A DNA stretch of 64,000 nucleotides, taken from an uncultured Alphaproteobacteria bacterium (GTDB taxonomy: Bacteria; Pseudomonadota; Alphaproteobacteria; Paracaedibacterales; CAITNM01). The position numbers were made by a program, and so were the translations under genes. Shown one piece after another: positions 30,502 to 32,696 of this stretch. The stretch lies in the NCBI GenBank assembly GCA_903893805.1, contig CAITNM010000046.1:70437-134436 (forward strand), read 5' to 3'. The notes under the pieces are model-generated. The model saw only the letters and a list, made by a program, of their open reading frames with translations, made no database searches and was not told where the DNA came from. Each line of letters begins with the position of its first letter. The stretch's first letter is position 1.

Positions 30502-31326
30502 ATGACTAGAATCTTATTTTTGTTGTTATTTGCAATGTTACATTGTAGCTACGCAGCCTCTAAGGTTTGTTGGACTTCAGAACAAGATGAGCAATTAATA
30601 GCTAGTATTGAAAGACATGCTGGGAAATCTTGGTCAATAATAGCTGAAGGGGTTGCAGGCAAAATAAACAAGCAATGTCGTGAGCGCTATATGTGTCAAC
30701 TAGATCCAATGATAGATAAAAGTCCTCTTTCTGCTGCAGAAATTTTAACACTTGAATTAGCTGTTCAGGAACTCGGTCCAAAATGGGGTGAAATTTCAAA
30801 GACATTATTCACATTACCCAGTGGAAAAAGAAGAACAGACTTACACCTAAAAAATATTTGGCATTCACAACACAGATCAGAGGTAGGAGGAAGAAAAAGC
30901 ACAGCTTCACATAAAAGGCATTTAGAAGAAGATTTTACTACGATACCACAGCGAGTTTTTTCAGCACTTCCTTCAATTAGTTCAAGCAGCACTAATAAGA
31001 AAAAGAAAGTTCTACACTCTACGGTCATAAGTAGTGTTTTCCGTGCACAACCACTTTATTCATCAACCACCTTAGGTAGCACCCATCTTTTCTCTGCCCC
31101 TCCACTTTTATTAAGTGGTCAACCGCTCTTACTGCCATCTCTCTTAATGCTATCTAGCAACGCGACTCCAACAAGAGATTCATCAGATAGCGACACTTTC
31201 TTACAGCTCTGCTCCAGCAATTCAGTAAGTGATCAGCAGTCTTTGTCCTCAACAAGCATTGTGGCAAACGAAACTTTAAGTGGGCCTGAACTTGCAAAAA
31301 TATTTGAAGAAGGTGGCTTTTGGTAA
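30502..31326 (+). CDS. exported protein with eukaryotic-type R2R3 Myb/SANT DNA-binding repeats
   Basis: Signal peptide MTRILFLLLFAMLHCSYAAS. Then W-x19-W-x..NKQCRERY..LDP..DK and ..GPKWGEISK..RRTDLHLKNIWHS (nt 30571-30867), compared with c-Myb GKQCRERWHNHLNP and [12 protein letters not shown]. Basic patches (NKKKKV) and a Ser-rich tail. The track starts at TTG 30457. Confidence 0.7.
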   Translation: MTRILFLLLFAMLHCSYAASKVCWTSEQDEQLIASIERHAGKSWSIIAEGVAGKINKQCRERYMCQLDPMIDKSPLSAAEILTLELAVQELGPKWGEISKTLFTLPSGKRRTDLHLKNIWHSQHRSEVGGRKSTASHKRHLEEDFTTIPQRVFSALPSISSSSTNKKKKVLHSTVISSVFRAQPLYSSTTLGSTHLFSAPPLLLSGQPLLLPSLLMLSSNATPTRDSSDSDTFLQLCSSNSVSDQQSLSSTSIVANETLSGPELAKIFEEGGFW

Positions 31327-31520
31327 AGATGCCTCTCTCCTCAGAGAACTCCATATAAAAACACTAGATTAGAATGACCTTTCACCCCAAAATTCTCTAT
31401 AGCTACCACACAATGAAAGCAATAAGAGCACCTTTAATACATCTGGATGTTTTTTTATTGCCCTTTTGATTTGTTTACAGTATTTTTACCACCTATTCTC
31501 AACTAAGAACCGTATAAATT

Positions 31521-32696
31521 ATGATTAAAATTTTAGTATTAATACTTTTGATAACTCCGTCTTTTACATTTTCTCTATGCGCTATGAAACCATGGACAGC
31601 TGAAGAAGATGCAGAGCTTATAATGCAAAGAAACTCAAGCGGTAACAACTGGAAAGAAATAGCAATAGCAGGAAGAACAAAGAAACAATGCTATACTCGC
31701 TATACAGTACATTTAGACCCTGCAATCGATAAGGCCCCCTTAAATCACACTGAACTCTTTATGCTTGTTAACGCAGTTAAAGGACATGGGATGAGTTGGG
31801 GTATGATTGCCGGAACATATTTCAAATCGGACACTAAAAGACGCACCATAGAACAATTAAAAAGTACATATAACAGTCTTAAAAAAAATAATACTTTACA
31901 TAATTACTTAGAACTATCGCCTACAACAGTTGCGCGCACGTCTCCACCACATGCACAAGTAGAAACAAAAAAAAGAAAAAACTCAAACTCTTCTTCGGGT
32001 GCAAGAAAAGCGCAAAAAACATTTTTTCCTGCAATTGTTGCTGATGACAGCTTAAGAGCTGAACCTGTAGGTCAGATAATTGTTGTTTCAGATGCTGATT
32101 GTTTGGACCCAAATGCCCCTTTAGATACAGCACAAAGCAATTTTGTAGCCCCAATCAGTCAACAGCCTGGTAATTCGCAAGATAGCTTCATTTATCCATT
32201 AGGCTATTTTGATGGTGACGACTCATTACATACTATCCCACCATCTCCTTTTGGCATGTCACCACAAAGTACTTTTTCTTCACCTGTAAGAGAAGATTCA
32301 ATAGATTACCATCTATTGAGCAGCCCTTTTTATAATGGATTATTCACTCAACCTGCTGAAGAGCAAGTTAACGGAATGAACCTTGTTCCAACTGCTGATG
32401 CACTTTTTCACGAAAGTTCCGTCTTTTTTCCATCTTCTACAGAAGAATTAACAGCTTCAAGGCTCACCGTTGGGGCAAATCAATCAGGTTTTCCTACTTT
32501 AAGCAGCCCACAACGTGGCATTTCTCAAGAAAGCCATTGGTCAGAATTTAGCGGCCTTGTAGATATAAGCTCTCCACTGTCTCCTGTAGCAAGAGAATTT
32601 TCAATGTCGCGCCTAATGAATAGTCCCTTGTTTCCTGTAGCAAGAGAAAACTCATTATCTCTCCTGATGGTAAGCCCTCTTATTGACTTATTGTAG
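31521..32696 (+). CDS. exported protein with eukaryotic-type Myb/SANT repeats (paralog)
   Basis: Signal peptide MIKILVLILLITPSFTFSLCA. WTAEEDAEL..NNWKEIA..GRTKKQCYTRY..LDP..DK and ..MSWGMIAG..KRRTIEQLKSTYNS (nt 31593-31877). ETKKRKNS basic patch and a long Ser/Pro-rich tail. Confidence 0.7.
   Translation: MIKILVLILLITPSFTFSLCAMKPWTAEEDAELIMQRNSSGNNWKEIAIAGRTKKQCYTRYTVHLDPAIDKAPLNHTELFMLVNAVKGHGMSWGMIAGTYFKSDTKRRTIEQLKSTYNSLKKNNTLHNYLELSPTTVARTSPPHAQVETKKRKNSNSSSGARKAQKTFFPAIVADDSLRAEPVGQIIVVSDADCLDPNAPLDTAQSNFVAPISQQPGNSQDSFIYPLGYFDGDDSLHTIPPSPFGMSPQSTFSSPVREDSIDYHLLSSPFYNGLFTQPAEEQVNGMNLVPTADALFHESSVFFPSSTEELTASRLTVGANQSGFPTLSSPQRGISQESHWSEFSGLVDISSPLSPVAREFSMSRLMNSPLFPVARENSLSLLMVSPLIDLL
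32581..32682 (+). repeat. 2 x 51-nt tandem repeat inside the 3' end of the second Myb-like gene
   Basis: CTCCTGTAGCAAGAGAATTT... at 32581 recurs as TTCCTGTAGCAAGAGAAAAC... at 32632. It encodes SPVAREFSMSRLMNSPL / FPVARENSLSLLMVSPL. Confidence 0.75.

Follow-up and report, generated by a model that had tools for sequence, protein, structure and literature searches.

How does a bacterium come to carry the DNA-binding domain of a eukaryotic transcription factor, and what would it use such a domain for? The question is raised by two adjacent genes, here called Myb1 and Myb2, in a 64,000-nucleotide stretch of DNA from an uncultured alphaproteobacterium (the window; contig CAITNM010000046.1, positions 70,437 to 134,436). 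A sequence-only reading had described them as exported proteins with two consecutive Myb repeats (R2 and R3), motifs resembling nuclear localization signals (NLSs) and a likely destination in the nucleus of a host. We find it practically certain that Myb1 and Myb2 are real bacterial genes encoding a genuine R2R3 Myb domain. That the proteins act as host-nucleus-targeted mimics of transcription factors is our best reading of their sequences, and in our judgement a somewhat better than even bet.

The two genes and their flanks are as follows:

30502..31326, + strand: Myb1, open reading frame (ORF) of 274 amino acids (aa) with signal peptide, R2R3 Myb domain, basic cluster and disordered tail
31521..32696, + strand: Myb2, ORF of 391 aa with signal peptide, diverged R2R3 domain, bipartite-like basic cluster and long disordered tail
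28196-30182, - strand: groEL/groES, flank of the Myb pair
32731-33285, - strand: frr, flank of the Myb pair

Both genes are intact tandem ORFs with groEL/groES on one side and frr on the other; the ORF list bears out their positions and strand, and all motifs quoted in the sequence-only reading were found in them (WTSEQDEQLI, NKQCRERY, GPKWGEISK, RRTDLHLKNIWHS, TNKKKKV, ETKKRKNS, SPLSAAE and APLNHTE). A TTG start for Myb1 at 30457 was rejected in favor of the ATG at 30502, because every orthologue begins MIRILF... and an identical public contig has a gene call of 274 aa. Myb1 and Myb2 are 43% identical over 100 aa of the domain (E 2e-20), and their tails are unrelated. A scan of the window against Rfam gave zero matches, and hence no rRNA by which to place the organism.

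Identification of the domain rests on profile, sequence and structure comparisons. Myb1 matched the Pfam family PF00249 (Myb_DNA-binding) with 50.7 bits (E 1.9e-13) and Myb2 with 42.5 bits (E 7.3e-11), both above the curated cut-off of 24.4 bits. In a phmmer search of the Protein Data Bank (PDB), Myb1 aligned to c-Myb (1h88_C, E 9.6e-22) in one continuous alignment over residues 22-127, corresponding to R2 plus R3, while Myb2 aligned to c-Myb at E 5.9e-08 over residues 23-98 only. The AlphaFold2 model of Myb1 has six helices, with a predicted local distance difference test (pLDDT) score of 85-94 at residues 21-128 and below 50 in the tail. Its top Foldseek matches were the DNA-bound Myb2 of T. 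vaginalis and the R2R3 unit of c-Myb, with a root-mean-square deviation (rmsd) of 1.8-1.9 Å and target-normalised template modelling (TM) scores of 0.74-0.86. Myb2 is likewise modelled with six helices, at a pLDDT of only 62-81, and superposed poorly in Foldseek (E about 1e-3, rmsd about 7 Å), so the assignment of its modelled second repeat is less certain than that of Myb1. Two adjacent three-helix repeats of about 50 residues with a helix-turn-helix are thus found in both proteins, less securely in Myb2, and the claim of a genuine c-Myb-type domain holds on Pfam, on PDB sequence matches and, for Myb1, on structure. The profile scan also gave a weak match to SANT_DAMP1_like (E 0.006), and no bacterial family covering Myb1 or Myb2 was found in NCBIfam. 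The repeats are placed as follows:

30565..30717, + strand: Myb1 R2 (residues 22-72) with recognition helix KQCRERY, aligned to c-Myb 94-144; helix at 56-67 in the model
30718..30885, + strand: Myb1 R3 (residues 73-128) with loop insertion LFTLPSGKRRTD, 5-6 extra residues before the recognition helix
31587..31889, + strand: Myb2 R2 (about residues 23-72) and diverged R3 (about 73-123), from alignment to c-Myb and the AlphaFold2 model

In c-Myb, bases are recognized by K128, E132, K182 and N183, phosphates are contacted by R131 and R133, and N136, N179, N186 and S187 make variable contacts (PMC3203581, PMC2673439). In the alignment, Myb1 and its orthologues retain K128, Q129, C130, R131, E132, R133, K182, N183 and S187, and the six base-recognition and phosphate-contact residues (K128, E132, K182, N183, R131 and R133) are invariant in 11 of 11 Myb1-type sequences examined; a distant relative (locus L007) has Arg in place of K182. 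In Myb1 the equivalents of K128 and N183 are K57 and N118. Changes relative to c-Myb in Myb1-type sequences affect N136 (Cys or Asn), N179 (Leu) and N186 (His or Asn), and the copy in the window has W134 replaced by Tyr, W147 by Leu, N179 by Leu and N186 by His. Tyr at the W134 position also occurs in at least 20 of 84 units from outside the family. Myb2 retains K128, C130 and K182 and is changed at R131Y, E132T, D178I, N183S and W185Y; the full base-recognition set is therefore present in Myb1 and broken in Myb2 (E132T, N183S). The core hydrophobic positions of R2 and R3 are occupied in both proteins, by W, W, Y and L, W, W in Myb1 and by W, W, Y and L, W, Y in Myb2. Given its conserved DNA-reading residues, Myb1 is predicted to read a Myb-type site, and Myb2 is not.

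The sequence-only reading had also pointed to a replaced first Trp in R3 and to a possible modification of DNA binding as a result. The replacement is real, with Leu in both proteins, but the proposed consequence is weak: functional plant R2R3-MYBs mostly have F, I or L at this position (PMC9178890), so the Leu is no argument against DNA binding, and Myb1 keeps all four base-recognition residues. The two proteins share the same overall layout but are not equivalent, given the substitutions E132T and N183S in Myb2, the loss of its R3 in 3 of 8 clusters and the fact that its tail is the conserved part.

Compared directly with the R2R3 unit of c-Myb (PF00249; PDB 1H88, 1MSE), the bacterial domain has the same tandem three-helix repeats, at about 40-45% identity over roughly 100 residues, and Myb1 carries the same K128, C130, E132, K182, N183 and S187 in a model that lies about 1.9 Å from DNA-bound structures. 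Unlike c-Myb, Myb1 and Myb2 are products of bacterial genes, lack R1, begin with a Sec signal peptide and end in tails unrelated to the regulatory regions of eukaryotic Mybs. They also differ at W134 (Tyr), W147 (Leu or Phe), N136, N179 and N186, and in the insertion of 5-6 residues before the R3 recognition helix.

Whether such a domain could ever meet host DNA depends on export, for which both N-termini carry a candidate signal:

30502..30555, + strand: Myb1 signal peptide MTRILFLLLFAMLHCSYA, cleavage predicted after SYA (S-Y-A at -3 to -1)
31521..31574, + strand: Myb2 signal peptide MIKILVLILLITPSFTFS, probable cleavage site behind TFS, which other alleles replace by TFA

Taking as the marks of a Sec signal a basic n-region, a hydrophobic h-region of 7-15 residues and small residues at -3 and -1, we found all three in both proteins. 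Myb1 reads MTR / ILFLLLFAML / HCSYA, then A, with a basic n-region and an h-region of about 12 residues, and Myb2 reads MIK / ILVLILLIT / PSFTFS. The N-terminal hydrophobicity of Myb2 (3.35) is the highest in the window and that of Myb1 (3.28) is among the highest. This N-terminus is kept in every full-length orthologue, and M1-F17 of Myb2 is largely invariant in 8 of 8; the Myb domain begins 3-4 residues past the predicted cleavage site. A lipoprotein signal was considered and rejected, as neither protein has a lipobox or a Gly, Ala or Ser before Cys (His or Leu at -1). Because eukaryotic Mybs have no such peptide, it would have been added after transfer of the domain. From this anatomy we consider export of both proteins through Sec very probable. 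The earlier description of the proteins as exported therefore stands as far as the Sec signal and its conservation in full-length orthologues are concerned; for passage across the outer membrane, no route turned up in the window or in the 10 kb that flank it on each side.

Beyond the domain, each protein has a basic cluster and a long tail with a few conserved islands:

30997..31008, + strand: Myb1 basic cluster KKKK, residues 166-169, four basic residues in a row, NLS-like
31282..31311, + strand: Myb1 C-terminal motif GPELAKIFEE, residues 261-270, hydrophobic-x-x-hydrophobic-hydrophobic with acidic flanks
31968..32018, + strand: Myb2 basic cluster KKRKNSNSSSGARKAQK, residues 150-166, bipartite NLS-like; E148-K153 invariant in 8 of 8 orthologues
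32169..32240, + strand: Myb2 acidic-aromatic block GNSQDSFIYPLGYFDGDDSLHTIP, residues 217-240, invariant across 8 clusters
32571..32693, + strand: Myb2 C-terminal repeats SPLSPVAREFSMSRLMNSP / LFPVARENSLSLLMVSP, then LIDLL, with the core REF(S/N)(M/I)xxL

By a PSORT-II-type rule in our own coding, 20 of 21 family members have four basic residues in a row after the domain, compared with 7 of the 49 other ORFs in the window. As candidate NLSs, the KKKK and KKRK clusters fit the classical rules; in Myb2 the ETKKRK is invariant, and the bipartite-like pattern behind it occurs at each of the five Myb2 loci examined. Two earlier claims are upheld here, as the position of the NLS-like clusters is conserved inside otherwise fast-evolving tails and the Ser/Pro-rich tails are predicted to be disordered in the AlphaFold2 models of both proteins. 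The motif GPELAKIFEE is kept as GPELxx[IV]FEE across Myb1 orthologues, with ETFAKLIEDFF in the distant relative at L007, and nowhere else in the Myb1 tail is a helix predicted (here 262-264) or does pLDDT rise. In Myb2, block 217-240 is the longest invariant stretch of the protein among the 8 clusters and is better conserved than the Myb domain, and the REF(S/N)(M/I)xxL core near the C-terminus resembles the LREFNIKTLD C-terminus of long-form Myb1. These islands may be activation, docking or partner-binding motifs.

We place the organism as a Finniella-like alphaproteobacterium of the Paracaedibacteraceae (Holosporales), and the metagenome-assembled genomes with near-identical loci bear the labels Candidatus Finniella, Candidatus Odyssella sp. 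and Alphaproteobacteria. The cytoplasm of cercozoan amoeboflagellates and of Euplotes ciliates is where the described species of Finniella live (PMC11909080). The host-associated setting supposed at the outset thus agrees with the organism's clade, which consists of obligate protist endosymbionts.

From the domain, its fold and contact residues, the signal anatomy, the motifs, the synteny and the evolution reported here, we infer a mechanism whose biochemistry would run in five steps. The precursors would pass through Sec and be cleaved after about residue 18, leaving the Myb domain at the mature N-terminus. They would then leave the periplasm, for which type II secretion, a tripartite ABC pump, vesicles and lysis are candidates. 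From the host cytoplasm, the conserved KKKK or KKRK cluster would direct nuclear import. There Myb1 would settle on Myb-type sites (YAACNG, core AAC) through the equivalents of K128, E132, K182 and N183, and its disordered tail with acidic-hydrophobic motifs would recruit or block host factors, making the protein a mimic or competitor of host Mybs. Myb2, whose DNA-binding surface is degenerating while its NLS-like cluster and a tail block are invariant, would probably act mainly by its tail, its Myb repeats serving as a SANT-like or low-specificity module. The complete chain, in which export, nuclear import and binding of host Myb sites allow the symbiont to tune host expression or division, is a tentative proposal that we would put at rather below even odds.

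Several known systems resemble parts of this scheme. TAL effectors of Xanthomonas and Ralstonia, which act as transcription factors in the host nucleus by means of a sequence-specific DNA-binding module, an NLS and an acidic C-terminal region, are comparable in the proposed mode of action only and not in family membership. They are built of bacterial 34-residue repeats and leave the cell by type III secretion, whereas here the module is a captured eukaryotic Myb domain, the signal is of the Sec type and activation by the tail is putative; neither TAL repeats (33-35 residues) nor a type III signal was found in the proteins, in which Pfam finds Myb families only and the N-terminus is Sec-type. 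Phytoplasma effectors such as SAP11 are small proteins that combine a Sec signal with an NLS and act on host nuclear transcription. Phytoplasmas are single-membraned, and Sec export suffices for them; SAP11, moreover, binds host transcription factors and has no DNA-binding domain, whereas the present bacterium has an outer membrane and its Myb proteins carry such a domain. Closer in taxonomy is PRP1 of Holospora obtusa, a 63-kDa protein of the periplasm bearing a putative signal peptide that is released into the host macronucleus and binds DNA weakly (PMC9866348). PRP1 also comes from the Holosporales and shows this order to have a way from the periplasm into the host nucleus, and the H. obtusa genome has a type II secretion system (PMC9866348). 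The likeness is one of description: PRP1 has a D5_N region and no Myb domain, and Holospora, being intranuclear, needs no NLS. Finally, a genome paper on clostridia that live as endosymbionts of termite-gut protists names Myb-like transcription-factor genes as part of their eukaryote-like gene set, in passing in its main text and without looking into their signals, contact residues or evolution there (PMC10579323). This is a genome-survey precedent for protist symbionts with Myb-type genes apparently taken from eukaryotes; the clostridia belong to another phylum and made an independent acquisition, a distinction drawn from their published description.

Several observations weigh against a nuclear destination. 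A Sec signal in a Gram-negative cell delivers only to the periplasm, and genes for a secretion system across the outer membrane were absent from the window plus 10 kb on either side (84 kb), where the search for them turned up only an RND pump and TolB. Substrates of type VI secretion normally lack Sec signals. Type VI is the secretion system that is conserved in this bacterial group (PMC11909080). The basic clusters, lying beside a Myb domain, could merely raise its affinity for DNA, and both signal peptides and NLSs were judged by simple home-made rules, together with conservation, rather than by trained predictors. For this particular bacterium, a protist host is assumed from its relatives. 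A promoter and terminator scan was uninformative on expression: promoter-like sites numbered 15, where 9.5±2.8 were expected, and a terminator was not found between the Myb genes. Lastly, partial decay would also fit the dN/dS values (ratios of nonsynonymous to synonymous substitution) of 0.4-0.6, a Myb1 whose 3' end is frameshifted and Myb2 alleles that have lost R3.

Some of these points would suit proteins that are exported and act outside the host nucleus, in the periplasm, on the bacterial surface or in the host cytoplasm, with a fold that binds proteins or binds nucleic acid non-specifically and with basic clusters that are no import signals. Besides the missing outer-membrane route, this would account for Myb2 having lost two of its four base-recognition residues, and in some alleles R3, while its tail stayed invariant, and it draws some support from the weak SANT_DAMP1_like match; SANT-type domains are commonly protein-binding rather than DNA-binding. 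It fits Myb1 poorly, since retention of all conserved base and phosphate contacts across about 40% divergence is hard to explain without sequence-specific DNA binding, and the basic clusters are the best-conserved feature of the fast-evolving tails. We therefore regard an extranuclear or SANT-like role as unlikely for the pair as a whole, and as possible above all for Myb2.

The evolution of the locus bears on whether the proteins function at all. Orthologues of Myb1 form 17 clusters and those of Myb2 form 8, about 25 protein clusters in which the ORFs are intact. Four further loci (L002-L005) share the order groEL-groES-Myb1-Myb2-frr, and groEL-groES-Myb-frr is found in at least nine independent assemblies from different projects. 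In L006, L009 and L011, Myb1 is the only Myb gene and occupies the same slot between groES and frr. The more distant L007 and L008, whose GroEL and Frr are 95% and 86% identical to those of the window, also have a single Myb gene in this slot; the gene was therefore present before those lineages split. The L007 protein, about 50% identical in the domain, comes with a signal peptide of its own and a third Myb repeat, and it also carries a KKRK cluster and the C-terminal ETFAKLIEDFF. Rates differ sharply between the Myb genes and their neighbors:

GroEL: identity between genomes 98.7-100%, dN/dS 0.03-0.04
Frr: identity between genomes 97-99.5%, dN/dS 0.01-0.03
Myb1: identity between genomes 59-69%, dN/dS 0.48-0.59 (domain 0.28-0.47, tail 0.58-0.77)
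Myb2: identity between genomes 74-82%, dN/dS 0.38-0.52

Synonymous divergence (dS) is alike for the Myb genes and their neighbors, at about 0.1-0.6, and dN/dS of the Myb genes is 10-40 times that of groEL and frr, yet below 1. The Myb genes therefore evolve fast, but not neutrally. Evolution of this kind is commonly described for effector genes. In some copies of Myb2, R3 is deleted (3 of 8 clusters; P0176-P0178, and loci L003 and L005), with the basic cluster and tail blocks retained:

L003 1426-2076 and L005 1216-2184: R3-less Myb2 alleles with degenerate R2 (W115 to Thr, C130 to Ser in some)

The tails of these alleles are nearly identical to those of full-length alleles, with a dN of 0.10-0.12 against 0.55 in the domain, which indicates mosaic evolution or recombination. 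Loss of R3 with the basic cluster and tail kept suggests that Myb2 works mainly via its tail.

The same figures were weighed for the possibility that the two genes are decaying leftovers of an old eukaryote-to-bacterium transfer, under weak selection in a small endosymbiont population and now without function. A dN/dS of 0.4-0.6 next to 0.01-0.04 in the neighbors would be expected of such leftovers, as would the one-base frameshift that shortens Myb1 in several lineages, the deletion of R3 in some Myb2 alleles and the absence of Myb2 from L006, L009, L011 and L007. Decay does not readily explain why ORFs remain intact in about 25 clusters at a dS of 0.3-0.6, why dN/dS in the domain is 0.28-0.47 instead of 1, why the residues that contact DNA, the signal peptides, the basic clusters and the blocks in the tails do not vary or why the same slot has been held since before the split of the L007 lineage. 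We consider it improbable.

A role in regulating the bacterium's own genes, in which the hydrophobic N-terminus would be no functional export signal, appears very improbable to us. Myb-like helix-turn-helix folds are able to bind bacterial DNA and the genes adjoin groESL, but the full n-h-c signal layout with small residues at -3 and -1 is strictly conserved and many nearby orphan ORFs have N-termini of the same kind. Moreover, no NCBIfam model matching either protein was found, and long disordered Ser/Pro-rich tails with basic clusters are atypical of bacterial regulators.

Where the domain came from was addressed by an exhaustive HMMER search, used in place of a domain-only word-index search that had returned 3 candidates only and was uninformative. 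The HMMER search gave 15,748 proteins at E ≤ 0.001, and the best two-repeat matches outside the family were 43-45% identical. Of the 8 best two-repeat matches looked up, 3 had an organism name, and all of these are eukaryotes (two amoebae, Soliformovum and Paramoeba, and one plant, Drosera). Three-repeat Mybs of the two amoebae are the nearest relatives that carry a name. Full R2R3 units were extracted from the best database matches and realigned, giving 84 units for comparison; the loop before the R3 recognition helix has 14-15 residues in 22 of 22 bacterial units and 8-10 in the 84 others. Of two regular expressions for the loop insertion, the first matched family members only and the second matched only 21 of 150 non-family proteins, and all bacterial copies carry W134Y together with the insertion. 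A tree built by neighbor joining puts the bacterial units in one group with a modest bootstrap of 61/100. Eukaryotic nearest outsiders and a single derived bacterial group are what transfer from a eukaryote to a bacterium would leave, and the loop insertion points to one old acquisition. A donor lineage was not found, the best non-family identity of 43-45% being no closer than that of c-Myb itself, and the composition of the Myb genes is already like that of the bacterial genome (GC 0.39 against 0.411±0.022 in core genes; GC at third codon positions, GC3, about one standard deviation low); for these reasons either the transfer is old or the donor was not sampled. An ancestor of Finniella-like endosymbionts would have captured, long ago, a single domain of the three-repeat (c-Myb) type, which then lost R1, gained a bacterial Sec signal peptide and was later duplicated in tandem to give the Myb1 and Myb2 paralogues. 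Eukaryotic host DNA mis-joined to a bacterial contig, which the eukaryotic affinity of the domain might suggest, is ruled out to a negligible residual chance by the same gene order in at least nine independent assemblies, the absence of introns, the near-core GC content and an insertion present in 0 of the 84 other units.

Recognition of the domain is not in itself new, since two orthologues already bear the NCBI pipeline names "Myb-like" or "SANT/Myb-like DNA-binding domain-containing protein". Bacterial effectors known to reach the nucleus mostly carry enzymes, ankyrin repeats or bacterially invented DNA-binding repeats. If Myb1 and Myb2 are indeed nuclear mimics, the bacterium would be using its host's own transcription-factor hardware with, in Myb1, the exact DNA-reading residues of c-Myb, and these would be the first nucleomodulins with a eukaryotic sequence-specific DNA-binding domain. 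As Myb sites control cell-cycle genes across eukaryotes, the symbiont could tune host expression or division. This would give a concrete handle on how Holosporales control their protist hosts, which a 2025 review calls poorly understood (PMC11909080). With a small domain and known contact residues, specificity and import are approachable without culturing the bacterium. In the literature we found no paper discussing these Myb proteins, the sole mention of bacterial Myb-like genes being one sentence in PMC10579323; in a 2021 nucleomodulin review Myb appears only as the host target MYB30, and neither a Legionella mimicry review nor the 2025 Holosporales review (PMC11909080) mentions it.

The 3' end of Myb1 exists in two forms among orthologues, and the window carries the short one:

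31322..31372, + strand: +1-frame extension GKDASLLRELHIKTLD*, overlapping the Myb1 stop and orthologous to the C-terminus of longer Myb1 forms
GGTGGCTTTTGGTAAAGAT: sequence at the candidate Myb1 +1 frameshift site
L009 about 1660-1740, L011 about 3810-3890 and L012 about 885-985: the other short-form loci

Around the stop (31318-31372) the short form ends FW-stop while the +1 frame stays open, and it differs from the long form by one extra G (TTT TGT GAA to TTT TGG TGA/TAA). The same insertion with an open +1 extension is present in 4 of 4 short-form loci, and in the domain tree the short forms are scattered among the long ones. In 3 of the 4, GGAGGTGG or AAGGTGG, which resembles a Shine-Dalgarno sequence, sits 3 nt upstream of TTT. 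A selection test on the extension gave a ratio of 0.55, compared with 0.54 and 0.68 in the other frames, and had no power at 15 codons. The short form could reflect recurrent mutation, recombination or programmed +1 frameshifting, and Myb1 might exist as two C-terminal isoforms through a recurrent or programmed +1 frameshift at TTT_TGG_TRA, the frameshift product of which would end in LRELHIKTLD.

The surroundings of the Myb genes are themselves variable. Fast Myb evolution beside near-invariant housekeeping genes marks the gap between groES and pyrH as a variable one that may hold other effectors. Among close genomes, this stretch (window 30183-38069) ranges from one inserted gene (Myb1 only, in L006 and L009) to four, and with flanking GroEL and Frr at 97-100% identity it has the character of a small hot spot for accessory and effector genes. 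Between frr and pyrH lie two paralogues of 746 and 667 aa (33464-35704 and 36062-38065, both + strand), 33% identical (E 3e-112). Each combines internal repeats and an N-terminus resembling a signal peptide with a YoeB/Txe-like toxin domain at the C-terminus (Pfam E 4.6e-10 and 7.8e-08). Their slot holds a similar 742-aa ORF in L003 and is empty in L006 and L009; by their sequences they look like exported toxins or effectors with an RNase-type domain. At L007 (6660-13464; GCA_947487955.1, ERZ27280204), two small paralogous ORFs of 180 and 192 aa precede the Myb gene, at least the latter with a signal-peptide-like N-terminus (…HMLFAG), and the Myb gene is followed by genes for a MacB/FtsX permease and an ABC ATPase as well as for a possible fusion protein of 355 aa and a TolC-like outer-membrane factor (OEP). 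This MacB-type set of four genes could be an export route for periplasmic proteins.

On the other side of the Myb pair, beside groEL, a 379-aa orphan (26865-28004, - strand) has a signal-peptide-like N-terminus (…NVSYA, then A) that recalls the Myb1 cleavage region. Its only matches, to S-adenosylmethionine (SAM) methyltransferases, are weak and all fall below threshold (E 0.002-0.07); the protein may be a further exported effector. Farther away, five ORFs of 123, 131, 257, 221 and 363 aa (4670-9129, - strand) have hydrophobic signal-peptide-like N-termini and no Pfam family, the 363-aa ORF (8038-9129, - strand) also carrying KKRK and KKKH clusters. A hybrid histidine kinase/response regulator (22926-24296, + strand; HATPase_c plus Response_reg) has an N-terminus resembling a signal peptide or membrane anchor.

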